Shown piece by piece: positions 11,625 to 30,189 of a DNA stretch of 32,349 nucleotides. Each line of letters starts with the position of its first letter. The stretch's first letter is position 1. The DNA lies in the NCBI GenBank assembly GCA_050331735.1, contig JBHJGN010000095.1, positions 1 to 32,349 on the forward strand, written 5' to 3'. The position numbers and the translations under genes were made by a program. The stretch is from Cyanophyceae cyanobacterium. GTDB taxonomy: Bacteria > Cyanobacteriota > Cyanobacteriia > Cyanobacteriales > JBHJGN01. The notes below the pieces were generated by a model. The model saw only the letters and a program-made list of their open reading frames with translations. It ran no database searches and had not been told where the DNA came from.

Positions 11625-12683
11625 ATGGCTCTTCAACTCTCTCTGAATGAGCGCTATCAACAGATTCTCAAAGCAACAGTACGACATTATATTGCAACAG
11701 TCGAACCAGTTGGCTCAAAAACGCTTGCTCAGGAGTACGACTTTAGCGTGAGTTCGGCGACTATTCGCAATGCCCTCGGTCGTTTAGAAAAAGCTGGCCT
11801 GCTCTATCAGCCCCATCCCTCAGCCGGCAGAATTCCTTCAGACCGAGGCTACCGAATCTATGTCGATCAGCTCATTACTCCTGACGAAACCATTGGTCCG
11901 CAGATTGAGAAGATCTTCGACCAGCAGCTTCAGCGCGATACGTGGAGCTTTGAAGCGATTCTGCAAAGAGCGGCGCAGATTCTCGCCACTCTCAGTGGCT
12001 ATATTGCGCTCATTACCTTGCCTCAGACGGCCAATCAGATTCGGCATCTCCAGTTAGTTCCCGTGTCTGCCGACCAGGTGATGCTGATTATTGTCACTGA
12101 TGCTTATCAAACTCATTCACTCCTGATTAATTTTCCGTCATCAGACGATGATGAGCAGGTCGTTGAGGGAGAACTACAAATCCTCTCAAACTTCCTCAAC
12201 AGCAAGCTGCGAGGACGGACTCTGGCCGAGCTAGTCACTCTAGATTGGGTAGAGCTAGACCGAGAATTTGAACGCTACGCTGATTTTCTCAAGACTCTGC
12301 TCACAGAACTCAGCCTTCGCCTTCAGCCAGCTTCCTCCACCCCAATTCTCATTCAGGGCATTTCTACGGCTCTGCACCAGCCAGAATTTTCCCAGCTCGA
12401 ACAGGTCCAGATGTTGCTGCATCTGTTAGAAGTTGAGCAAGAGCAGCTCTTGCCCCTCATTTTTGACCTCCCGGAATCAAGTGCTAGTAGAGTCAAAATC
12501 ACCATCGGTGCAGAAAACCCTTTAGAATCGATGCGCCCCTGTACGCTTGTTAGCTGTACCTATCGCCAGGGAGAAGTTCCGGTAGGGAGCGTTGGCATCA
12601 TCGGTCCGACGAGGATGCTGTATGAGAGTGCGATTCCACTTGTGGAAACGACAGCGGATTATTTGTCTGAAGCGTTTAGCTGA
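11625..12683 (+). CDS. hrcA: Heat-inducible transcription repressor HrcA
   Basis: YIATVEPVGSK, SSATIRN, QPHPSAGRIPS..GYR.YVD, GIIGPTRM. Confidence 0.97.
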   Translation: MALQLSLNERYQQILKATVRHYIATVEPVGSKTLAQEYDFSVSSATIRNALGRLEKAGLLYQPHPSAGRIPSDRGYRIYVDQLITPDETIGPQIEKIFDQQLQRDTWSFEAILQRAAQILATLSGYIALITLPQTANQIRHLQLVPVSADQVMLIIVTDAYQTHSLLINFPSSDDDEQVVEGELQILSNFLNSKLRGRTLAELVTLDWVELDREFERYADFLKTLLTELSLRLQPASSTPILIQGISTALHQPEFSQLEQVQMLLHLLEVEQEQLLPLIFDLPESSASRVKITIGAENPLESMRPCTLVSCTYRQGEVPVGSVGIIGPTRMLYESAIPLVETTADYLSEAFS

Positions 12684-12705: not shown

Positions 12706-12738
12706 GGGGGAAAGGGGAAGGGGAAAAGGGCAATTTTT
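12706..12738 (+). repeat. G-rich heptamer-like tandem repeat downstream of hrcA, with no inserted hairpin
   Basis: gggggaaaggggaaggggaaaagggcaattttt. Confidence 0.7.
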
Positions 12739-12979: not shown

Positions 12980-15406
12980 TTGGTTGCTAAAGTGGTTTCC
13001 TATCAGTATCAGGTTGGAGGTCGTCTGCCGGTCGAGGCTCCTAGCTATGTGGCTCGGCAAGCGGATGAAGAACTGTATCAGGCGTTGGCAGCCGGGGAGT
13101 TGTGCTACGTACTTAACTGCCGTCAGATGGGAAAGTCTAGTCTGCAAGTGCGAGCCGCGCAGCGACTCCGGGAGAATAACATCGCCTGCGCGTTGGTGGA
13201 TCTTTCTGGAATCGGCAGCCGCCATACGACCCCCGCTCAGTGGTATGCAGATATTATGATGCGGCTCGTGCGGAGCTTTCAACTCAGTAATCGCCTCAAT
13301 CTGCTCCGCTGGTTATCTCAGCGCCAAGTCCTGTCGCCCGTGGGTCGTTTGAGAGAGTTTATCGAGGCAGTTCTACTCCAGCAGATTCCACAGCCGATGG
13401 TGATTTTTTTCGATGAAATCGATGCGACCCTCAGCCTAGATTTCGATACCGATGATTTTTTTGCCCTGCTGCGGTCCTGCTACTCTCCCTACCGCCTGAC
13501 TTTTGCTTTACTCGGGGTGGCCACTCCAGCCGCTCTCGTTACGGATAAAACGCGGACTCCGTTCAATATCGGGCGAGGAATCGCGCTGAGCGGCTTTCAG
13601 CTCCCCGAAGCTCAGCCGCTCGCTCGCGGTTTAGTCGGCAAAGTAGACAACCCGCAAGCGGTGTTAAAAGAGATCCTTTCCTGGACAGGAGGACAGCCGT
13701 TTCTAACGCAAAAGCTGTGTCAGCTTGTGGTTCAAAGTGGCGTGGAGAAGATGACCGACGACCGGATGGGAATGGCTGAGGACTCATCGCCCTTTATCAA
13801 AAAGCTCGTGCGCGAAGCCCTCATTCACCATAGCGCGATCGCCGTTCAGATAGAAACGCTGGTAGAATCTGAGCTGATTGAAAACTGGGTTGCTAAAGAC
13901 GATCCGCCGCACTTGAGAAGCATCAGCGATCGCCTTCTCAGCAACGAACAGCGTGCTGGACATCTGTTAGGAATGTATCAGCAAGTTCTGCACCAGGAAA
14001 TTCCTGTCGATAATTCCCCTGAGCAAATTGAACTCCTGCTCTCGGGTTTGGTCATCAAGCAGCAGGGACGCTTGAGAGTCTCCAACCGCATTTATCAACG
14101 AGTATTCAACCACGACTGGATTGAAAAACAGCTCGCTAAGCTTCGTCCCTACGCTCAGCCGCTTAATGCCTGGGCGACTTCTGGCTACCAAGATGAATCG
14201 CCGCTCCTGCAGGGTCAGGCTCTAGCGGATGCGCAAGCGTGGGCAGCCGGAAAAAGCTTAAGTGTTTTGGACTATCGCTTCTTAGCGGCCAGTGAGGAGC
14301 GAGCCAAGCGAGCGATGCAAAGCGCTTTAGCAGCGGCGGAGCAGGCTAATCAGGTAGGCAACCAGATAAGTCAAGCAGCACTGCAAAAGCAAATCAACTC
14401 CCTCCGTCAGGAACTTACGCTCCTCAAGCAGGAAAAAAACGATTTGGAAATTCTCCTAGAGACGATGACGGAACACTCTGACCTTGTTGAGGAAGAACTG
14501 CATAGCAAGGTGATCACGGCCCGAGAGCAGAGTAAAGAGTGGTTCCAAACGATCGCCGAAGCGACACCGGTGGCGATTCTGCTGTCGAGGGTGGCGGATG
14601 GCAAAATTCTCTACGCCAATGCGACAGCCGGAGTTTTGTTAAGACGTTCCGCTTCAAGACTAATAGGCCGCTGTACGCTAGATTTTTATAGGAACCCTGG
14701 CGATCGCCAGCAGTTAGTCAGTACCGTCACTCGGCATCGATACGTCCACAACTACGAGCTTCAGGTCAAGCGAGCGGACGGGACTTTGATTTGGGTAACG
14801 GCGTCCCTGCGACAGCTAATATTTAACGATGAACCGACTCTGCTAACTGCACTCATCGATGTAACAGACCGCAAACAGGCTCTGGATGCCCTGGGGCGAG
14901 CGGAGGCCAAATACCGCAGTATTTTTGAAAACGCCCTTGAAGGCATTTTTCAAATTACCCCAGAGGGGCAGTATATCAGCGTTAATCCGGCTATGGCAGA
15001 ACTGCTGGGCTACGACTCCCCAGAGCAGATGATTTCGCTGATTAGCGATCATCGTCAAATCGCCGTCAATCCTGCTTGTCGGCATCAGATCCGCCGCCTC
15101 ATCGAGAAACACGGTGAGGTCAAAGGCTTTCAGTATGAAGCCTGTCGGCGGGACGGCAGCCTCCTCTGGATCTCTGAAAGTACGCGGGCCGTTTATGACG
15201 AGGCAACGAGGAAGCTGCTGTACTTTGAGGGCATTGCCGAAGACATCAGCGATCACAAGCGAGAAGAAGCTGCGCTCCGGCGACAGGTGCAGCAAATGCA
15301 GGTCGAAATCGACCAGCGCCAGCGAGATTGCCAAGTCGCTGAAATTACTCAAAGCGACTACTTTCAGGAGCTGCTCCTAGAAGTTGAGCGCCTTCGCTTA
15401 GACTAA
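12980..15406 (+). CDS. AAA_35-type (STAND-like) P-loop NTPase + coiled coil + two PAS domains + helical tail
   Basis: YQVGG.L...APSYVARQAD, Walker A RQMGKSSL, Walker B IFFDEID, TPFNIG, WTGGQPFLTQ. PAS1: IAEATPVAI...YAN...DGTLIWV. PAS2: KYRSIFENALEGIFQ...DGSLLWISE...FEGIAEDISD. Confidence 0.9.
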   Translation: MVAKVVSYQYQVGGRLPVEAPSYVARQADEELYQALAAGELCYVLNCRQMGKSSLQVRAAQRLRENNIACALVDLSGIGSRHTTPAQWYADIMMRLVRSFQLSNRLNLLRWLSQRQVLSPVGRLREFIEAVLLQQIPQPMVIFFDEIDATLSLDFDTDDFFALLRSCYSPYRLTFALLGVATPAALVTDKTRTPFNIGRGIALSGFQLPEAQPLARGLVGKVDNPQAVLKEILSWTGGQPFLTQKLCQLVVQSGVEKMTDDRMGMAEDSSPFIKKLVREALIHHSAIAVQIETLVESELIENWVAKDDPPHLRSISDRLLSNEQRAGHLLGMYQQVLHQEIPVDNSPEQIELLLSGLVIKQQGRLRVSNRIYQRVFNHDWIEKQLAKLRPYAQPLNAWATSGYQDESPLLQGQALADAQAWAAGKSLSVLDYRFLAASEERAKRAMQSALAAAEQANQVGNQISQAALQKQINSLRQELTLLKQEKNDLEILLETMTEHSDLVEEELHSKVITAREQSKEWFQTIAEATPVAILLSRVADGKILYANATAGVLLRRSASRLIGRCTLDFYRNPGDRQQLVSTVTRHRYVHNYELQVKRADGTLIWVTASLRQLIFNDEPTLLTALIDVTDRKQALDALGRAEAKYRSIFENALEGIFQITPEGQYISVNPAMAELLGYDSPEQMISLISDHRQIAVNPACRHQIRRLIEKHGEVKGFQYEACRRDGSLLWISESTRAVYDEATRKLLYFEGIAEDISDHKREEAALRRQVQQMQVEIDQRQRDCQVAEITQSDYFQELLLEVERLRLD

Positions 15407-15460
15407 TGCTGCCAGGATCAGGAGCGTAACCATCAAAATTCAACAGTCGGAATTGGTACA

Positions 15461-16207
15461 ATGCCTAAAATTATTGCGATTCATTCTTATCGCGGGGGAA
15501 CCGGAAAATCGAACTTTACCGCTAATCTGGCGGCGGCGATCGCCCAGCAGGGGCAGCGAGTGGCTGTCGTCGATACCGATCTCCAATCTCCCGGCATTCA
15601 TGCTCTGTTTAACCTCGATGAATCTAGCCTGGGCAAAACCCTCAATGACTATCTTTGGGGACGCAGCCCCATCCTGGAGACAGCTTATGATGTCAGTCCT
15701 CTGCTCAAACAGGATGCTGCTTTGTTCCTCATTCCTGCCAGCATGAATGCGGATGAAATTGCCCGGATTCTGAGCGAAGGCTACAACGTTAGTCAGCTCA
15801 ACGACGGCTTTCGTCAATTAATCAAAGAGCTAGAGCTAGACTATCTGCTCATTGATACCCATCCAGGACTCAGCCGAGAAACGCTACTCTCCCTTGCAAT
15901 TTCTCACACCGTTCTGCTGATTCTGCGACCCGATCGCCAGGACTACCAGGGAACTGCTGTAACCGTTGATGTCGCTCGCCAGCTTAAGGTCCGTCAGATG
16001 ATGTTGGTGATCAACAAAGCCCTCAGCAAAATGGACCACGCCACCCTCCAGCAGAATGTCGAAAAAACCTACAGCCTCCCAGTGGCAGGCATCTTTCCCC
16101 TCTCAGAAGATATGGTGCAGCTTGGCAGTAGCGGACTCTTCTGCCTTCAGTACCCCAACCTTCCCTTTAGCAAAACCCTCGCTCGCGTCGCCCAACAGAT
16201 TCTGTAG
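15461..16207 (+). CDS. MinD/ParA-family ATPase (atypical subfamily)
   Basis: Deviant Walker A HSYRGGTGKSN, VVDTD, Walker B LLIDTHPG, INK. It does not resemble division MinD and no minCE is nearby. Confidence 0.9.
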   Translation: MPKIIAIHSYRGGTGKSNFTANLAAAIAQQGQRVAVVDTDLQSPGIHALFNLDESSLGKTLNDYLWGRSPILETAYDVSPLLKQDAALFLIPASMNADEIARILSEGYNVSQLNDGFRQLIKELELDYLLIDTHPGLSRETLLSLAISHTVLLILRPDRQDYQGTAVTVDVARQLKVRQMMLVINKALSKMDHATLQQNVEKTYSLPVAGIFPLSEDMVQLGSSGLFCLQYPNLPFSKTLARVAQQIL

Positions 16208-16229
16208 ACATTTTTGGCATCAGGAGAGT

Positions 16230-16297
16230 GGGGAAAGGGGGAAATCGTTCCTCCGGAACGGGGAAAGGGAAAAGGGGAAAGGGGAAAGGGAAATTTT
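16230..16297 (+). repeat. G-rich heptamer-like tandem repeat with an embedded hairpin CGTTCC-TCC-GGAACG
   Basis: ggggaaagggggaaat-cgttcctccggaacg-gggaaagggaaaaggggaaaggggaaagggaaatttt. Confidence 0.78.
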
Positions 16298-16471
16298 GCG
16301 GCTGTACTCTCTACTCTAGTCCCACAGAGGTCTATCCTCTCACCCCACTAGTAACTGCAAACGGCATTTGTCTTGAAAAAATAGCAGGAGGCAAACAGCA
16401 ACAATTAAACAGTGGCCCGACTCCTGACCCCGCTCTCCCTCAATCCCTGTTCCAACTAGCCCCTAAAAGCA

Positions 16472-17497
16472 ATGGCAGACAATCACTTTCAATCTCTGGC
16501 AAACTCAATTCAAGCCGTTACTTCCCCGTTCCGCAACTACCTCATTGAGCTGCATCAAAAGTATCAGTCCCTCGATGGGGGGAAAGTAGCCGACTACATT
16601 CCTGAACTAGCGAAGGCTGACCCAGCGTGGTTTGGTATCTGTATTGTGACTCCAAAAGGACAGGTCTACGAGGTGGGAGACTGCCAGCAGCTTTTTACCA
16701 TTCAGTCGATTTCCAAAGCCTTTGTTTACGGCATGGCGCTCGAAGATTGGGGACGAGATTACGTTCTGTCTAAAGTGGGAGTCGAACCGACTGGAGAAGC
16801 CTTTAACGCCATCGTCCTCGACGAACAAACTAACCGTCCCTTCAACCCGATGGTCAACGCCGGAGCGATCGCCACCACTGCTCTGGTTAAAGGAGCAGGG
16901 GCGACCGAGCGACTCCAGCGGCTGCAAGATTTGTTCCGGCGCTATACCGGACGAGATGTGTACCTTGATATGCCCGTGGCTCTTTCTGAGAAAGCCACGG
17001 GCAGCCGCAACCGAGCGATCGCCCACCTGATGCACAACTTCGGCATGATTAGCGACCGGATCGACGAAACCCTCGACCTCTATTTTCAGCAGTGTTCACT
17101 GTTGGTTAACTGCCGCGATTTGGCCGTGATGGGGGCGACCCTGGCCAATGGGGGAGTGAATCCGCTCACGGGCGAGCGGGCGATCGCGAGCGGCTACGTG
17201 CAGGATGTGCTGAGCGTGATGCATACCTGCGGGATGTACGACTATGCCGGGGAATGGGCTTACCGAGTCGGAATTCCTGCTAAAAGCGGCGTCGGCGGAG
17301 GAATTGTCGCCGCTGTCCCTGGGAAATTGGGCATCGGCGTGTTTTCGCCTCCCCTCGACGACAAAGGCAACACGGTGCGGGGCATCAAGGTATGTGAAAA
17401 CCTCTCCCAAACCTTTGGTCTCCACCTTTACAATGCGGCTCGCCCCCAGCGAGATTTAACGGCTTGGATGGAGGAACGGGATGTCGTCGAAAGCTAA
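16472..17497 (+). CDS. glsA: Glutaminase A
   Basis: [12 protein letters not shown], catalytic QSISK (SxxK), [26 protein letters not shown]. Confidence 0.96.
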
Positions 17498-19112
17498 GCT
17501 GAGGACGCTGAGCGCGAATCGGCAACTGCTTCAGCTCCTGACGGCTCGACTATCGAGGCGGATCGTGCTGTGGATCTTTGCCAGCATTATCTTAATTGAG
17601 GCTCTCATCCTCATTCCCTCTGTCCAGCGACGCCAGCGAGAGTTGCTCAATCAAGTGAAGGAAATTTCCTCGGCTAAGGTCGCCTGGATCGCCGCGACCT
17701 ACCCCAACGCCACGCCTGAAGAGTTGCTCGTCTACGCTGAGCAAATGCAGCAGCAGCCAATGATGGAGGTGATTTTGGGCGGCGCTATCTATGATACCAA
17801 CGGCCAACGAGTGGGCACCTTTGGTGCGGCCCCAGAGCTCGTCTATACGGACGTGCTTCGTCAGAGAAACCTCGACTTTCAGGCGATCGCCTACTCCGAC
17901 CCCGAAAACGAGCAGTATGATGTGGCCTGGACCATTCCCTCGGGCAACGACACCTATCTGCTCATGCTGCGGCACGACGTTTCTTCCGTCACCTCAGAGC
18001 TCTATGCCTTCGTGCTGCGGATTGCTGGCCTTGTCGTGATCATCTCTGTTTTTGTTACCGTTGCTACGGTAATTATTTTAGGACCGATGGTCATTTCTCC
18101 CATTTTGCAGCTTCGGCAGGATTTGCTGAGCGCTGGAGTTGCCGTCGTTAACGACCGGCCTCCGCCTCCTCTCTACTCTGCCTCTGTCCAGCGTCGGGAT
18201 GAACTGGGAGAGGTCATCGCGGCGTTTAAGCAGATGTTCCAACAAATTAATCAAGCTATTCGTCAACGCAAGCAGGCCGAACAGCAGCAGGCCCAAACGG
18301 TTGAGCAACTAGCCCAGGCAAACGCTGAAATTAAGCAGCTCAATCAGCGGCTGAGAAGCGAAAATCTGCGCCTCAACGCTGAGCTAGAGGTAACGCGCAA
18401 GCTACAGCAAATGCTGTTGCCAAAGGAGCAAGAGCTCGCTCAGATCGACGGCTTAGAAATTGCTGGCTTTATGGAACCGGCGGCGGAAGTCGGCGGTGAC
18501 TACTACGATGTTATTTCTCAGGATAACGGTGTCAAAATCAGCATCGGCGATGTCACCGGACATGGGTTAGAAAGCGGGGTGCTGATGATTATGGCTCAAA
18601 CCGCGACCCGGACTCTGCTAGCCAACGACGAAACCGACCCGGTGAAGTTTTTGAATGCCCTCAACCAGACGATTTACGATAACGTGCAGCGCATGAACTG
18701 CCACAAATCCCTGACCCTGTCTCTGCTGGACTACCGGGAAGGCCAAGTATATCTCAGCGGTCAACACGAAGAAGTGATTGTTGTCAGAGCCGATGGCTCT
18801 CTGGAGCGGATTGATACGATTGACCTGGGCTTTCCGCTTGGTTTAGAAGCCGATATTGCCAGCTTTGTTGCTCAAACCCACGTTAAGCTGGCAGCCGGAG
18901 ACGGCCTGGTTCTCTATACCGACGGCATTACAGAAGCCGAAGACAAGCAGGGAGAACAGTACGGTTTGGAGCGTCTGTGCGCCGTGGTGCGCCGCCACTG
19001 GAGCGGTTCAGCGCAAGCTGTGCAGCGAGCGGTGATTGAGGATGTCCAGCAGCATATCGGTCAGCAAACGGTTTACGACGACATTACTTTGTTGATTATT
19101 AAGCAAAAGTAA
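17481..19112 (+). CDS. Membrane-bound SpoIIE/RsbU-family PP2C phosphatase with periplasmic and HAMP domains
   Basis: Two TM segments, [15 protein letters not shown], a coiled coil, then [23 protein letters not shown] and DDITL. Confidence 0.93.
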
Positions 19113-19130
19113 GTAGCGCTAAGAATAGTC

Positions 19131-19697
19131 ATGGTAGAAATCTTTGGAGATTTTGACGATTCCCTCCCTCCCAGTCAAGAGTACCTGCATATTCAGTTTT
19201 CGCCGAGTTCTGCTCCTCTTAAGCAACGCTGGCGCAATAATGGTCTCTCGGCTGATTTTATGGGAGATTACTCCACCACGTTTCTCCCCCGCGACAACGA
19301 TGCGTTTGATAGCAAACGAGAGGTGAAGAGTACCATTAGCTTTATTGCGAATGAGCTGCTTGAAAACGCCATGAAGTTTAGCACCGAAGCTTCTCAATAC
19401 CCTGTGAGTCTTACGCTTCACTTGCTCAACGATAAGCTTGTCTTTCTCGCGAAAAACGACATTTCCCCAGCCAATCAGGATAGGCTACAGGCCTTTATTG
19501 CTACCTTGCTCAGCTCAAACCCCGAGGAACTGTATACCGAACAGGTTGAAAAAAGTGTGCTGTCAGCAGAACAGTCTGGACTCGGCATCCTCACTATGAT
19601 TAATGATTATCAGGCCAAGGTAGGCTGGAAATTTGAAACTCTCCAGAAAAACCCTGCTCTTGTGGCTGTTATCACCATGGTACAGCTTGCACTCTAG
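19131..19697 (+). CDS. Anti-sigma-type HATPase Ser/Thr kinase (Slr1658-like/SiaB-like)
   Basis: N-box IANELLENAMKF, G-box SGLGILTM, and RWRNNGLSADF..DY recognised from the Slr1658-like family. Confidence 0.8.
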   Translation: MVEIFGDFDDSLPPSQEYLHIQFSPSSAPLKQRWRNNGLSADFMGDYSTTFLPRDNDAFDSKREVKSTISFIANELLENAMKFSTEASQYPVSLTLHLLNDKLVFLAKNDISPANQDRLQAFIATLLSSNPEELYTEQVEKSVLSAEQSGLGILTMINDYQAKVGWKFETLQKNPALVAVITMVQLAL

Positions 19698-19732
19698 ACG
19701 AGACTGTTCGGAAGACGAATCACGCGACGATC

Positions 19733-20074
19733 ATGAAAATAGAAGCCGAAAACTACTGGATAGAATACAACCCAGCGACCGCCACAGCCAGCTTTGCCGG
19801 TACGCTGCGCTTGAACGGGATGGTAGGGTATGGGCCTATTGTTCGGTTGCTCAACGACATTATTGACCAGACCCCCCCACAAGTCACTCTAGATATACAA
19901 AATCTTCAGTTTCTGAACAGTTCTGGCATTAATGTTCTCTCGAAGTTTGTGATTCAGGCTAGACAAAAACAACTGTCACTGCTGGTGAAAGGGTCTCAGT
20001 CGATTTCCTGGCAAAAAAAGCTCCTAAAAAATCTTCAGCGATTAATGCCCGCTTTACAAGTCGAATTTACCTAA
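19733..20074 (+). CDS. STAS-like anti-anti-sigma protein (Slr1659-like/SiaC-like)
   Basis: LDIQNLQFLNSSGINVL with the STAS phosphoacceptor serine region; WQKK.L.NLQRLMP. Confidence 0.82.
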   Translation: MKIEAENYWIEYNPATATASFAGTLRLNGMVGYGPIVRLLNDIIDQTPPQVTLDIQNLQFLNSSGINVLSKFVIQARQKQLSLLVKGSQSISWQKKLLKNLQRLMPALQVEFT

Positions 20075-20131: not shown

Positions 20132-20425
20132 CTACAGCCAGGTAGAAACGGAACGCAATCCTTCAGGAATTGGCGTTTCGGGGGGGAATTCTAAGGTTGT
20201 TTCGCGATCGCCCAAATACCCGGACTCGGTAAAAGCAAGCAGCATCCGCGACAGGGCTACCCACACCTCGCGGTCGAATTCCCAGTCCCCCTCCCGAGGC
20301 GAATAACAGGAAATCGACCGCAACGCCCAAAAGTAGCTGTTGCGCACGACTGACCCGCCTTTTTTGTAGCCAGGAAGATCGTCAGAGTTAATCACAATAA
20401 TGTCGTCTTTGAGAGACACTCTCAT
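20132..20425 (-). CDS. Conserved-looking cyanobacterial hypothetical protein (about 97 aa)
   Basis: MRVSLKDDIIVINSDDLP.YKKGGSVVRNSYFWALRSI...; ATG 20425 avoids the overlap with nlpD that the ORF-track start would create. Confidence 0.7.
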   Translation of the reverse strand: MRVSLKDDIIVINSDDLPGYKKGGSVVRNSYFWALRSISCYSPREGDWEFDREVWVALSRMLLAFTESGYLGDRETTLEFPPETPIPEGLRSVSTWL

Positions 20426-20465
20426 CGCTGCTGAGGCTGGTGGGTAGCGCCTTCGACACTGTTGA

Positions 20466-22283
20466 CTATTCAGGCTTTGGTAAAAACGCCATCGGATTGA
20501 CGGCTCCCTTACCCTCCGGGTGGATTTCAAAATGCAGGTGAGGACCGGTACTATAGCCGCTGTTCCCCATCTCCGCAATGAGCTGCCCTTGCTCAACGTA
20601 CTGACCTTGGCGCACCAAAATTCGGCTATTGTGGGCATACAGCGAGAGGCTGCCGTTGTCGTGCTTCACCTTGACCAGGTTGCCGAAGCCGCCAGAATTC
20701 CAGCCCGCGGAGACAACTTGACCAGCCGCCACCGCCACAATCGGAGTGCCGATGGGACCAGCCACGTCAATGCCCTTGTGCATTCTTCCCCACCGTCTGC
20801 CGTAACCGGATGTTAACACGCCGGCTGCTGGCCAGATATAGCCCGTAAATTGGGTGCCTCGCTCGCTGTCGGGGAGATACGGCTCCGGAGAAGACAGCGG
20901 CGGCAGTTCGGGTTCTACCATCTCTCCGGCTAACGGTTGCAGTCTTGAGTAGTATTCAATCTCTACCGGAGCCGTAGCCGGAGAGCGCCTGGCTTGCTGA
21001 CCGCGAAGGTGACCAAGAGAGCGCCGGGAATATTTTTTCTCGGCGTTCAGGTTTTGAGCAGAGCGAGGGGGGCTAGTTCTTGGCGGCTGAGGAGACTGAG
21101 CGCGATACTCTTGCTGGAGCTTGGCGACATCAGCTCTCAGCTTTTCGGCGTAGGAATCGGCTTCTAGAGGCTGGTTGGTCGGCTGAGCTAAACTGTTAAC
21201 GTTTGAGGTCGTGACTGTCGCAGTACTGGCTCGCTCATGGCGAGGGGATTCAAGCGAGCGAGCTTGCTCAAAGCAGCAGCCAGGGCGCTCGTCGAGTAGG
21301 GTTTCTCCGGCATCTGAGGTATCCGCCATCCGGTAGGAACCTCCAACTGCTCCCCTGGAAGAGGGAATCTGTAATTGCTGATTGACCTGGATCAGATCCG
21401 GATTCTCTAGCCTGTTGGCCGCCGCTAACTGAGGGTAGGTTACCTGATGCCTGTGAGCAATTTCTTGTAGAGTATCCCCCGGCTTCACCCGGTATACCGG
21501 CTCGACGGACAACGTTGGCTGAAAAATCTGAGGTGGGGGCACAACTGTTGCGCCTGTTGCATCCTCAGTCGGCGAGGACGCACTCCGAGCAGCCGCTAGC
21601 GCTGAATGAGCAATGAGCTGTGGTTTCGAGGATGCCTGCTGCGGAGCGGAATCTTGAGACTCTGGTTTCCACAATTGAGTCAAGCTCAGCGAAAGCTGCT
21701 GCTTCTGCTGTCTTAAATTTGCGAGGGCTTGCTCTTGGCGCTGCTGCACCTCGAGAGACGCTTCGCTGAGTGCCAGTTCTGCACTGCGTTCTTCGGGCTG
21801 TAGCTTCAGAACCTTTGCCGGTTCAGAGCTCGTCGGAATTGAGGTTAACGTCCGAGCGGCTGAAATCGCTTCGGGCTGGCTCCGTTCAGCGGCGATGGTC
21901 GGCAGAGGTTGATAACGCTGGGAAATTTCCCACAGCGTTTCTGATCCGGCGACCGAGGAGGGGGGATGCCCGGGGGCTTGCTGAGTCTCTGGTTCTGTTA
22001 AGCGCTCTGGCAGCGACTGAGCGAGGTTGTCCCCTTGATGGGGAGCCGGGATCAATAGAGTCGGCACAGAAATTGAATCAACGGCTATGGCTCGCTCTTG
22101 GTGGGGAATCAGCACACTGCTGAGAGCGCCAACCGAGAGAAGCAGTTTAAATAAGGGGGTTGAGGAGCGGGTTTCTCCCTGATTGACATCTGTAACTTTC
22201 CTGGGAGTGTGGGGGTCTAAGGGAGCAGATTTTGCTGAGTGTAAGGAAATCGCTTTAACCAACGGCATCATTTCGTCTTTCAA
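20466..22283 (-). CDS. nlpD: LysM + M23 peptidoglycan DD-metalloendopeptidase (NlpD-like)
   Basis: LysM YRVKPGDTLQEIA...N.LENPDLI.VNQ.LQIP; M23 HKGIDVA, YAHN, STGPHLHFE. TTG start at 22283 follows GGAGG. Confidence 0.88.
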   Translation of the reverse strand: MKDEMMPLVKAISLHSAKSAPLDPHTPRKVTDVNQGETRSSTPLFKLLLSVGALSSVLIPHQERAIAVDSISVPTLLIPAPHQGDNLAQSLPERLTEPETQQAPGHPPSSVAGSETLWEISQRYQPLPTIAAERSQPEAISAARTLTSIPTSSEPAKVLKLQPEERSAELALSEASLEVQQRQEQALANLRQQKQQLSLSLTQLWKPESQDSAPQQASSKPQLIAHSALAAARSASSPTEDATGATVVPPPQIFQPTLSVEPVYRVKPGDTLQEIAHRHQVTYPQLAAANRLENPDLIQVNQQLQIPSSRGAVGGSYRMADTSDAGETLLDERPGCCFEQARSLESPRHERASTATVTTSNVNSLAQPTNQPLEADSYAEKLRADVAKLQQEYRAQSPQPPRTSPPRSAQNLNAEKKYSRRSLGHLRGQQARRSPATAPVEIEYYSRLQPLAGEMVEPELPPLSSPEPYLPDSERGTQFTGYIWPAAGVLTSGYGRRWGRMHKGIDVAGPIGTPIVAVAAGQVVSAGWNSGGFGNLVKVKHDNGSLSLYAHNSRILVRQGQYVEQGQLIAEMGNSGYSTGPHLHFEIHPEGKGAVNPMAFLPKPE

Positions 22284-22549
22284 GAACAGCCTCCTAACCG
22301 ACAACAAGTTCTTCAGCTCTAGACAGATTGAGGGGTTCAACCGAAAAATCGAGCCTCTTTAATCATTTATCTGAAGTCGGGAAGTCTCGATCTACAGATA
22401 GTTTCCATGCTGTCTAGGAAAGATTAACCTGGTTTTTTATTTTAGACAAGTTCTTTTTGGTCGTAACTTTTGAAATCTGCCCTGTTAGCGATCGCTATTT
22501 GGGGTTAAATCCGCTCGGATGATCAAGCGAGCTCAATAAGGCCCCGCTG

Positions 22550-28963: not shown

Positions 28964-30189
28964 TCAGCTTCTGCTGAGTCGAACGGTGAAGCAAGTGCCA
29001 ATTCCAAGCTGACTGGTAACGGCGATCGCCCCGCTATGCTGGTGAATAATTGCCTGGGCAATGGCTAATCCTAAACCCGCTCCTCCAGCCGAGTAGGAAC
29101 GAGACGGATTCGCTTGCCAAAATCGCTCAAAAATCTTATCCAAATGTTCTGGCGCAATTCCAATGCCGGTGTCTTCTATTTTGATCTGAATAGAAGCATT
29201 CTGGTAAGCTTTTACGGACACTTGACCGCCTGAAGACGTATACTGAAGCGCATTTTGAACTATATTGGCCAAGGATCGCTCTAGAGCGGTTTTATCACCC
29301 CAAAAAGTTAAATTGTCGTTAATTTGAGCTTCAAGGGCAATTTTTTGTCAAGTGCTAAGGGTTCGTATAATGCGACTAACTCTCTAAGCATCACGGTTAA
29401 ATTGACTCTTGTCCGGTCAGATTTAGCACTGCGATCATTTCGTGCCAACAGCAGCAAATCTTCAGTTAGTTGAGTCATTTGATTCGTGGCAGAGGCGATC
29501 GCGCTGAATTTCTCTCGATCCGTTTCCCGCATGCCGTGGGGATACTTCAGCGCAACAGCGGCATTGCTTTTAATTGCCATGAGCGGATTGCGTAATTCGT
29601 GAGACGCATCGGCTGTAAACTGCTTCAGTCGCTCAAAGCTTTCCTCGATAGGCTGCATCGCCTGGCGAGTCAGCCAAATTCCTCCCAGTCCACTCAAGCT
29701 CAACGCCATCACAACACCAACTCCAAGTCCTCGGTCTAGGCTACGGAGAGTGTTATTAAGATCTTGAGTTGACAAGCTGACGCGCGTGTAGCCCACAAAC
29801 TTGCCAGTGTCATAATCGTTCGTAGGAATCATTAGGCTTTTTGCTGGAAGAGGACTACTCTGGGTCTGAATGGCTTGGTCTGGATCGAAGGGAAGCATTA
29901 AAGCATAGTCTCCCTGTTCTTCGATGAGGTTCCCCTCTGTATCAAACCATTGAATGACTTGATTTGCCGCAATTAACTCTTCTTGTTCGTCATCGACCTC
30001 TACCTCTCCGTTATCTTCAATCTCCAAATTAAGAGCAGCCGCTTTCGCAAGGGTTTCTAGTCTATTCATCAGTTGTTGATCAAGGCTGCGAGTAAAAACA
30101 ATCCGAACGGCGATCGCAAACGTTGTGAGAATCACTGTTAGCACCGCCAGGTAAGAAAACACTAATCGATAGCGAATTTGCTGAAACAC
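28964..30189 (-). pseudogene. Membrane sensor histidine kinase split by a 1-bp frameshift (pseudogene or sequencing error)
   Basis: ORF 30189-29308 has two TMs and the H-box FTADASHELRNPL. ORF 29272-28964 has the HATPase (NALQY, DTGIGI, GAGLGLAI). Adding one A to the A6 run at 29341-29346 gives continuous DKKIALEAQINDNLTFWGDKTALERSLANIV. Confidence 0.88.

Follow-up and report, generated by a model that had tools for sequence, protein, structure and literature searches.

Bacterial partner-switching systems such as SiaABCD of Pseudomonas aeruginosa and RsbU/V/W and SpoIIE/AA/AB of Bacillus encode together a PP2C-type phosphatase, a small GHKL-fold kinase or anti-factor, and a STAS protein with a conserved serine loop. 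A comparable trio, in which the kinase or anti-factor is putative, is encoded by genes g4 to g6 in a six-gene cassette of a cyanobacterium (Cyanophyceae; GenBank assembly GCA_050331735.1). The cassette lies on contig JBHJGN010000095.1, of which positions 1 to 32,349 were analyzed and are referred to here as the window. Unlike in the Sia, Rsb, and SpoII systems, family scans of the window ORFs of ≥80 amino acids detected neither a sigma factor nor a diguanylate cyclase, and the neighboring genes encode a sensor with a conserved C-terminal tail (g1), a MinD-like ATPase (g2), and a glutaminase A (GlsA; g3). Slr1658 and Slr1659, to which g5 and g6 belong, are curated as families of their own, and the window proteins score under the Sia family cut-offs (SiaB, 21.5 versus 85 bits; SiaA, 73.5 versus 700 bits), and the g5 family further differs from the kinases of these systems in that no G1 ATP-lid box was found in it.

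The putative kinase g5 belongs to the same NCBIfam family as Slr1658 of Synechocystis sp. PCC 6803 (slr1658_cyano, 257 bits). Disruption of slr1658 (Zer et al. 2018, as cited) led to impaired recovery from iron limitation and overexpression of pgr5 (PMC7555055, PMC6525291). Slr1861 and PmgA are described, in the part of the source consulted, as verified RsbW-like kinases of Synechocystis (PMC11863333).

The ATPase g2 resembles the ATPases of the MinD-MinE, ParA-ParB, McdA-McdB, PpfA-TlpT, and ParC-ParP pairs, which are switched by a short helix of the partner, and FleN, which acts on FleQ, in being a deviant-Walker-A ATPase encoded beside a partner with a short conserved helical module and a candidate client protein. 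It departs from these systems in that every one of the 86 family sequences compared has Arg at the position of the signature Lys, its partners are sensors (PAS, HAMP, dCache, FHA, GAF, or receiver), and GlsA, the candidate client, is a soluble enzyme of metabolism. In its accessible text, a 2024 review names as cargos the chromosome, carboxysome, divisome, flagella, chemoreceptor arrays, and secretion machines, with none like GlsA among them (PMC11407121).

GlsA of the window is in the same family as the bacterial GlsA/YbaS-type glutaminases (TIGR03814, 370 bits) and retains the SxxK motif but, unlike those enzymes, is one of a set of copies extended at both termini, with extensions that accompany the ATPase. 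Two glutaminases have been described from Anabaena (Zhou et al. 2008, as cited); in the excerpts of the citing paper, glsA1 is treated at the transcript level only, and the regulation described there and in the other literature searched for cyanobacterial glsA is transcriptional (PMC12052932). Literature searches on slr1658, on MinD/ParA-like proteins with glutaminase, on partner switching in Synechocystis, on cyanobacterial glsA, and on FHA with glutaminase and MinD turned up no account of these genes together in the article texts covered.

Conservation of the sensor tail, ATPase, and glutaminase genes

We read the cassette as a composite of two units, a tail sensor/ATPase/GlsA module and a PP2C/Slr1658/Slr1659 switch, joined at the MinD-like ATPase. 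Sensors would act via the ATPase on the glutaminase, and the switch would serve as a lineage-specific second input; we assign this reading a probability of roughly 0.5. A sequence-only reading of the same DNA had proposed a spatially organized partner-switching system that couples periplasmic and PAS-sensed signals to glutamine hydrolysis. Gene neighborhoods indicate that the conserved core is the sensor tail, the ATPase, and GlsA rather than the switch, and this core is found in several phyla beyond the cyanobacteria.

The third gene, glsA (positions 16472 to 17497, plus strand; 341 amino acids), was identified by TIGR03814 (369.8 bits; cut-off, 255.4) and PF04960 (420 bits). Its QSISK motif is intact, and it has N-terminal and C-terminal (..DLTAWME..) extensions, as in ATPase-linked GlsA proteins. 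Using this protein as the query against one genome per species (185,579 species genomes), the best 80 loci of 587 relatives were compared. A g2-family gene (50 to 73% identity) was found on the same strand and within 1.2 kb of glsA in 33 of these 80 closest loci, and the linked loci were from Planctomycetota (n = 23), Acidobacteriota (n = 4), Cyanobacteriota (n = 3), Burkholderiales (n = 1), a "Deltaproteobacteria" metagenome-assembled genome (MAG), and one other MAG. Two of the 33 had the reversed order glsA, GAF-tail, g2. An open reading frame (ORF) with a tail like that of g1 was present in 28 of the 33 g2-linked loci versus 0 of the 47 without g2. Sixteen tail ORFs at the GlsA loci were scanned for domains, identifying 12 FHA-tail, 2 GAF-tail, 1 HAMP-tail, and 1 HisKA-receiver-PAS-tail proteins. 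Two pairings suggested from the sequence alone were thereby borne out, namely, that of an RGGTGKS-type MinD with glsA, which extends over several phyla, and that of PAS-tail proteins with the glsA and MinD-like pair.

Linked and unlinked copies of GlsA also differed in sequence. The N-terminal extension was scored by alignment reach, as a strict regular expression failed outside the cyanobacteria, and the alignment to the window GlsA began at residue 9 or earlier in 32 of the 33 linked versus 8 of the 47 unlinked copies. The Q[ST]xSK motif was present in 30 of the 33 linked proteins, and in the alignment the cyanobacterial linked copies share the segments SLA.SI.AV.SPFR.YL and DL..W. For loci in the "glsA-type" g2 clade, acidic-aromatic motifs (D.W, LDEFW) close both GlsA and the sensor tails. 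In a phylogenetic tree of GlsA, the linked copies formed a grade, inside which one clade of eight unlinked copies (Shimodaira-Hasegawa approximate likelihood ratio test [SH-aLRT], 100) was nested. A complex prediction for g2 with GlsA, using separate alignments for each protein and run without controls, reached a score of 0.01, where the mark is 0.32; this speaks neither for nor against binding.

Among 60 genomes from the same order, g2 lay directly upstream of the three closest GlsA orthologues (72 to 74% identity; genomes G044, G036, and G024) and of a 44% identical copy in G038, so that glsA adjoins g2 in 4 of the 18 same-order genomes having the ATPase. A sensor-PAS-tail gene was found within 0 to 3 kb in three of these four; for G036, the 12 kb retrieved held no detectable tail ORF. 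Nine full-length, single-domain GlsA proteins at 60 to 68% identity were also retrieved from same-order genomes, and neither g2 nor a tail gene adjoined any of them. As GlsA is the sole enzyme in the three-gene operons, it is most likely their output.

Other arrangements of glutaminase genes were observed. The genome carrying the window encodes a tandem double glutaminase ORF of ∼710 amino acids (C29:228068-230197), the domains of which are 59% and 54% identical to the window GlsA, and this double form is also present in the same-order genomes G056 (C115) and G029 (C457). In G044, glsA is separated from the PAS-tail gene by a gene for an LCIB-type beta-carbonic anhydrase and a 123-amino-acid ORF (L030:8701-9965), with a LysR regulator gene adjoining.

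The g1 sensor and its C-terminal tail

The first gene, g1 (positions 12980 to 15406, plus strand; 808 amino acids, TTG start), encodes a STAND-like AAA_35 NTPase (approximately residues 14 to 440), a coiled coil, two PAS domains (residues 530 to 630 and 644 to 755), and a C-terminal tail. The AAA_35 match scored 93 bits, both PAS domains were found with Pfam and NCBIfam, and the translation contains a Walker A sequence (RQMGKSS) and a Walker B sequence (FFDEID). In two other cyanobacterial loci (L005 and L006), the AAA_35 protein and a PAS-PAS-tail protein are two separate ORFs, which in the window are fused as g1. Of the flanking WD40 proteins, those of L064 and L069 alone share this NTPase (64 to 65% identity by tblastn); the idea that it is the N-terminal module of all flanking NTPase-WD40 proteins was rejected for that of L047 (BLASTP E value, 0.73).

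The tail comprises 49 residues (758 to 806; positions 15251 to 15397, plus strand), with the consensus ..REE.LK.Q..E[ML].IEID..K....VAEIT.[TS]DYFQ.L..E...LR. In the AlphaFold2 model, a 34-residue helix (757 to 790) leads out of the PAS domain and precedes a second helix of 15 residues (793 to 807), with predicted local distance difference test (pLDDT) values of 72 to 75. No Pfam or NCBIfam family spans g1 residues 775 to 808. A hidden Markov model (HMM) was built, seeded from residues 746 to 808; it matched the g1 tail with an E value of 7e−21. Among 1,675 ORFs from the retrieved loci, the HMM gave 54 C-terminal matches, nearly all within ∼10 residues of the C terminus and five at 28 to 40 residues. 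The tail stood behind PAS, HAMP, dCache-HAMP, or almost nothing, and these genes were usually directly upstream of g2. Because the last 49 residues are a conserved tail module, g1 does not appear to lack an effector, as had been supposed from its sequence, and the tail is taken here to be its output module.

Only two tail matches, g1 and a 265-amino-acid protein, were obtained from the 40,765 six-frame ORFs of the genome carrying the window, and both lay within 6 kb of one of its two g2-family genes. The second of these ATPases, on contig C59 (C59:16458-22696), has 275 amino acids and begins MTTMISIHSYRGGTGKS; its gene overlaps by 4 nucleotides the end of a gene for a tail-less 610-amino-acid protein. 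The 265-amino-acid protein, with a divergent tail (VEIDRSRQAREVANIVQADSF), is encoded ∼5 kb from it on the other strand.

A search of 1.84 billion representative proteins with the tail profile identified 2,277 at E values of ≤1e−3 and 1,198 at ≤1e−10. The best 150 representatives included 54 with HAMP, ∼45 with PAS, 19 with dCache_1, 9 with receiver, 5 with HisKA, and 4 with GAF domains. The g1-type NTPase occurred among them only in g1's own cluster, and the g2, Slr1658, Slr1659, and GlsA profiles each had no match within this set. A STAS protein sharing features of the tail (score of 0.88 against a bar of 0.9) was considered and dropped, given that no Slr1659 match was among these 150. One ammonium transporter, one nSTAND1 protein, and one protein with WD40 repeats were also among the carriers and would be unusual inputs.

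The MinD-like ATPase family

The second gene, g2 (positions 15461 to 16207, plus strand; 248 amino acids), matched PF10609 (69.1 bits; cut-off, 27.1), PF13614 (63.4 bits; cut-off, 27), and PF01656 (57 bits; cut-off, 25.4). It remained below the cut-offs for bacterial MinD (TIGR01968; 51.3 versus 212.9 bits), archaeal MinD (88 versus 201.75 bits), and the KGGVGR variant family NF047398 (85 versus 90 bits), having RGGTGKS in place of KGGVGR. The loop residues H8, S9, R11, G12, G13, G15, K16, and S17 are invariant in 86 sequences, such that the P-loop is intact, and Arg11 presumably sits where MinD and ParA carry their signature Lys (KGG..GK[ST]). The true MinD of this genome is encoded on contig C4 and scored 403 bits compared with 49.5 for g2. 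By these profile scores, g2 is not the MinD of the cell and is best classed as a ParA/MinD (SIMIBI) superfamily ATPase of a distinct, highly conserved family, with 52 to 75% identity across Cyanobacteriota, Chloroflexota, and Pseudomonadota.

A tight pairing of an ATPase with a glutaminase could also be expected of a biosynthetic enzyme. In this alternative, g2 and GlsA would form a two-subunit glutamine-dependent amidoligase in which GlsA gives ammonia to a SIMIBI-class synthetase, with the tail protein as a regulator or substrate; CobQ/CobB and CTP synthase are glutamine-dependent, ATP-using synthetases that would serve as models. The pairing of g2 with glsA across phyla fits such an enzyme, as does the match of g2 to the CobQ/CobB/MinD/ParA family PF01656 and, weakly, to the dethiobiotin synthetase-like family AAA_26 (25.3 bits, under the cut-off of 27). 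The solved structures closest to g2 are nevertheless archaeal MinD proteins (1hyq; E value, 5e−17) and not synthetases, with FleN also among the closest, and 73 of the 87 g2-family genes have no adjoining glsA. As we also know of no beta-lactamase-fold GlsA that acts as an amidotransferase subunit, we regard an amidoligase as very improbable.

Searches with g2 gave 192 relatives, and glsA adjoined g2 in 8 of the best 80 loci. In a tree of 87 rows, two sister clades (SH-aLRT, 98 each) were recovered, one of 16 rows, 10 of which adjoin glsA, and the other of 34 rows; glsA adjacency was found in both. The base of the 34-row clade holds the window, the switch-linked loci L050, L005, L057, L047, and L048, and L064, which has no Slr1658/Slr1659 pair. 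Inside it are 23 Nostocales-type loci with a canonical AAA_35 protein after g2. In these Nostocales loci (L051 to L067 and others), the conserved order is an NTPase-WD40 gene (minus strand), GST, a PNPOx-like gene, a gene for a small tail protein (∼135 to 165 amino acids), g2, and the canonical AAA_35 gene (∼470 amino acids); in this form of the module, both glsA and a partner switch are absent. A 108-amino-acid protein encoded after g2 in L089, L090, and L094 had no relative in the genome carrying the window (phmmer with one query family; E value, ≤0.01).

The partner switch

The last three genes encode the switch proper. The g4 product (positions 17481 to 19112, plus strand; 543 amino acids) has a hydrophobic, putatively transmembrane segment (residues 24 to 50), a loop of ∼118 residues, a second such segment (169 to 212), a HAMP-like segment, a coiled coil, and a PP2C domain (348 to 541; PF07228, 145 bits; cut-off, 25); the HAMP match was weak and under the cut-off (19 bits). 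The g5 gene (positions 19131 to 19697, plus strand; 188 amino acids) matched slr1658_cyano (NF052618; cut-off, 200 bits), and the scan of g5 and g6 also returned NF047703 (231.5 bits; cut-off, 100). The g6 product (positions 19733 to 20074, plus strand; 113 amino acids) belongs to the slr1659 superfamily (NF047705, 146 bits; cut-off, 100) and exceeds the STAS cut-off (PF01740, 23.4 bits; cut-off, 22.6). Residues L61, N62, S63, S64, and G65 of g6 are invariant in 26 sequences, and we take this LNSSG loop to occupy the same position as the DSSG phospho-serine loop of SpoIIAA. The phosphatase and STAS members recognized from the sequence alone were thus confirmed by family scores. The model of g5 (pLDDT, 84) gave SpoIIAB, UsfX, RsbW, and SiaB as the top Foldseek matches (E values, 5e−5 to 7e−4), and g5 is therefore predicted to have a SpoIIAB/RsbW/SiaB-like GHKL fold. 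The 28 sequences compared conserve the N-box ENAMK, which is part of NELLENAMK in g5, as well as a G2 box (GLG.L).

With g5 as the query, 25 loci were examined, again from one genome per species. An Slr1659 homologue adjoined Slr1658 in all 25, and a PP2C domain was within the flanks of 23; glsA was found in none and a g2-type ATPase in one (L005). The pair instead adjoined a PAS-class III cyclase in L007, L010, L012, and L013, a GGDEF protein in L017, L022, and L024, a GGDEF-EAL protein in L018, and an MscS-like channel in L014, L015, L019, L020, and a second triad of the genome carrying the window. That a canonical output is missing from this cassette, as had been pointed out from the sequence, holds for all ORFs of ≥80 amino acids across the whole 32-kb window, among which family scans found no sigma factor, GGDEF, or cyclase gene. 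The Slr1658 tree sorts by neighbor, with a six-member tail/ATPase clade that includes the window (SH-aLRT, 99), a GGDEF group, a cyclase group, and an MscS-linked clade (SH-aLRT, 100), in which five of six rows have that neighbor. Two further Slr1658 proteins encoded beside a tail/ATPase unit (L050 and L074) fall outside the six-member clade.

The second Slr1658/Slr1659 pair of this genome lies on contig C41 (L004:7676-14913, minus strand), with two tandem dCache-HAMP-PP2C genes before it and the MscS-like channel gene after it. A 460-amino-acid protein with a faint GATase match is encoded upstream.

Junction of the switch with the tail/ATPase unit

An Slr1658/Slr1659 pair beside a tail/ATPase unit was found at eight loci (the window, L005, L006, L047, L048, L050, L057, and L074), in at least three gene orders. 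The window, L057, L047, L048, and L005 share the order tail sensor, g2, (glsA), PP2C, Slr1658, Slr1659, and L006 is the L005 arrangement minus g2 but with the tail sensor. L050 has dCache-PP2C, Slr1658, Slr1659, PAS-tail, g2, glsA, and a second g2, while L074 has g2, Slr1658, Slr1659, and PAS-tail. All parts occur together only in the window, L057, and L050. The co-occurrence of Slr1658/Slr1659 with glsA, MinD, and PAS-tail proteins that had been anticipated from the window thus stands in part, in that the full six-part set recurs in two further genomes, once reordered, but most pairs have no glsA or MinD-like neighbor. Judged from these neighborhoods, the junction appears to be rare and lineage specific.

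The phosphatase itself has sequence ties to the tail proteins. In L064, a protein with HAMP and the tail at its end in place of PP2C shares 45% identity over 271 amino acids with the N-terminal half of g4, the sensor half, and a HAMP-tail protein of L127 is 42% identical to g4 residues 1 to 256 by tblastn.

Upstream of the switch-tail-g2-glsA cluster of L050, which is from a MAG, lies a gene for a pyridoxal phosphate-dependent decarboxylase (L050:3264-5039). This arrangement brings to mind the acid resistance of E. coli, which pairs a glutaminase with a glutamate decarboxylase.

Proposed mechanism and alternative explanations

From the gene content, conserved adjacency, family-specific sequence features, and folds observed, we infer the physical contacts, the direction of the signal, and an effect on glutaminase activity. 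First, the sensor tail would dock on the ATPase and set its ATP-dependent dimer state or turnover, possibly acting as the helices of MinE, ParB, or McdB act on their ATPases. The ATPase would then bind GlsA through the GlsA extensions, and glutamine hydrolysis would be switched on or off, or the assembly or location of GlsA controlled. Filament formation activates human glutaminase, which offers an analogy for such switching. In the window, the sensor would be the cytoplasmic NTPase-PAS-PAS protein g1. The switch encoded by g4 to g6 would have lost its usual cyclase, GGDEF, or channel neighbor in this lineage and would most likely pass a further signal, of extracytoplasmic origin, to that ATPase/sensor node, with the free STAS or kinase component binding g2 or g1.

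A broader form of this proposal is a signal route spanning several phyla, in which varied sensors (PAS, HAMP/Cache, FHA, GAF, or receiver) end in a common tail that drives an Arg-variant MinD-like ATPase rather than a kinase or cyclase. GlsA would be a direct client, switched in activity or assembly state, and the Ser/Thr switch would be wired into the same node here; this route is put forward tentatively and may well not hold in full. FHA domains bind phospho-threonine, and the frequent FHA-tail inputs would therefore make phospho-dependent control a recurring theme.

A number of observations weigh against the composite reading. The degenerate GlsA of G038 (L046:2381-3412) reads NLGN for SISK and is altered in other active-site stretches; it is probably a pseudo-enzyme. 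It has lost Ser-x-x-Lys yet is retained between g2 and a HAMP-PAS-tail gene, and catalysis may therefore not always be what the module needs. This copy would suit an arrangement in which GlsA is the input, reporting glutamine, and thus nitrogen status, to the ATPase node, with the output elsewhere, for example in gene expression via the switch. Such an output could accommodate the ∼thousand-fold rise in pgr5 transcripts that, according to the portions seen of two reports, follows disruption of slr1658 in Synechocystis (PMC6525291, PMC7555055). Conversely, the window and 30 of the 33 linked proteins keep the Q[ST]xSK motif, and the non-cyanobacterial three-gene operons conserve no other candidate output; a role of GlsA as the input is held to be unlikely.

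The composite reading is also weakened by the 5 of 8 switch and tail/ATPase loci in which glsA is missing within the flanks retrieved; the glutaminase is thus not an obligatory output of the switch. These loci also count against the possibility that the partner switch acts on GlsA itself, through activation by Slr1659 or sequestration by Slr1658, with the MinD-like ATPase only positioning the complex. Under that explanation, the 17-nucleotide overlap of the glsA and PP2C genes would be meaningful, as would the recurrence of glsA followed by a g4-type PP2C gene in L057/L131 and on a short Kovacikia sp. contig (L129), the GlsA of which is 80% identical, and GlsA would fill the place of the missing canonical output, since Slr1658/Slr1659 pairs elsewhere adjoin single effector proteins. 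However, 30 of the 33 ATPase-linked GlsA loci, all non-cyanobacterial, have the ATPase and usually a tail protein but no Slr1658/Slr1659, and direct action of the switch on GlsA seems a poor prospect. That no DxGxG G1 box was recognizable in the 28 Slr1658 proteins also tells against the composite reading, as kinase activity is therefore not assured.

The remaining difficulties concern linkage. A spacer of 264 nucleotides separates g2 from glsA in the window, and the 60 same-order genomes, of which 18 have g2 and 30 have Slr1658, never have the two close together. The switch was seen at 6 of the best 80 g2 loci, and cases with both switch and ATPase are all from Leptolyngbya-like or unplaced cyanobacteria. 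Inherited synteny could explain part of the link, and the well-supported branches of the Slr1658 tree force no more than one origin of it. Most g2-family genes (65 of 87) adjoin neither glsA nor the switch, and the ATPase must therefore serve other clients too. The spacer and the rarity of the switch link would be expected were g1-g2, glsA, and g4-g6 mere neighbors without a functional connection. Mere proximity is, though, highly improbable in view of the g2-glsA adjacency in several phyla and in two orders, the restriction of the tail to GlsA loci with g2, the linkage-specific GlsA features, the dedicated Slr1658 clade, and the sensor domain that g4 shares with tail proteins.

Other features of the window

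The six co-oriented genes, their coordinates, and the gaps between them (54, 264, −17, 18, and 35 nucleotides, in order from g1 to g6) were reproduced exactly by the ORF calls, and the domain assignments made for all six by the sequence-only reading were upheld by Pfam and NCBIfam scans. The start of g4 overlaps the stop of glsA, an arrangement compatible with translational coupling.

Upstream of the cassette is hrcA (positions 11625 to 12683; TIGR00331, 271 bits), and downstream is an NlpD-like LysM/M23 gene on the minus strand (20466 to 22340). The cyanobacterial markers gshA_cyano (676 bits) and slr1658_cyano are present on the contig. For a 168-amino-acid ORF (20132 to 20638, minus strand), no family match was obtained; it overlaps the NlpD-like gene at the 3′ end of the latter and is probably not a gene. 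Further downstream, a histidine kinase appears to be split into two ORFs (28964 to 30189, minus strand), with HisKA (293 amino acids) and HATPase_c (102 amino acids) 35 nucleotides apart.

Arrays of the heptamer GGGGAAA occur in the spacers before g1 (12707 to 12730; 3.4 copies) and before glsA (16255 to 16290; 5.1 copies, within the spacer at 16208 to 16471). With 147 perfect dimers genome-wide, the heptamer is a dispersed repeat, and the array is therefore probably not specific to this locus. No Rfam family reached the gathering score across the window, including the g2-glsA spacer, a promoter consensus scan found nothing usable 5′ of g1 or glsA, and terminator-like sites from a consensus scan were at the number expected by chance.

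Implications for glutaminase control

Glutamine is a hub of nitrogen metabolism, and to our knowledge post-translational control of glutaminase in bacteria has scarcely been described. The conserved operon, which encodes GlsA together with a sensor and an ATPase and occurs in Planctomycetota, Acidobacteriota, Cyanobacteriota, and Proteobacteria, provides a testable handle on such control, and GlsA gives the tail/ATPase pairing a concrete, assayable candidate client. An NTPase-PAS sensor that seemed to lack an output gains a putative output module, common to 2,277 representative proteins, and the Slr1658 family, with its strong and unexplained phenotype in Synechocystis, is placed in a defined protein neighborhood. 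If the proposal is true, glutamine catabolism would be subject to post-translational, signal-gated control.

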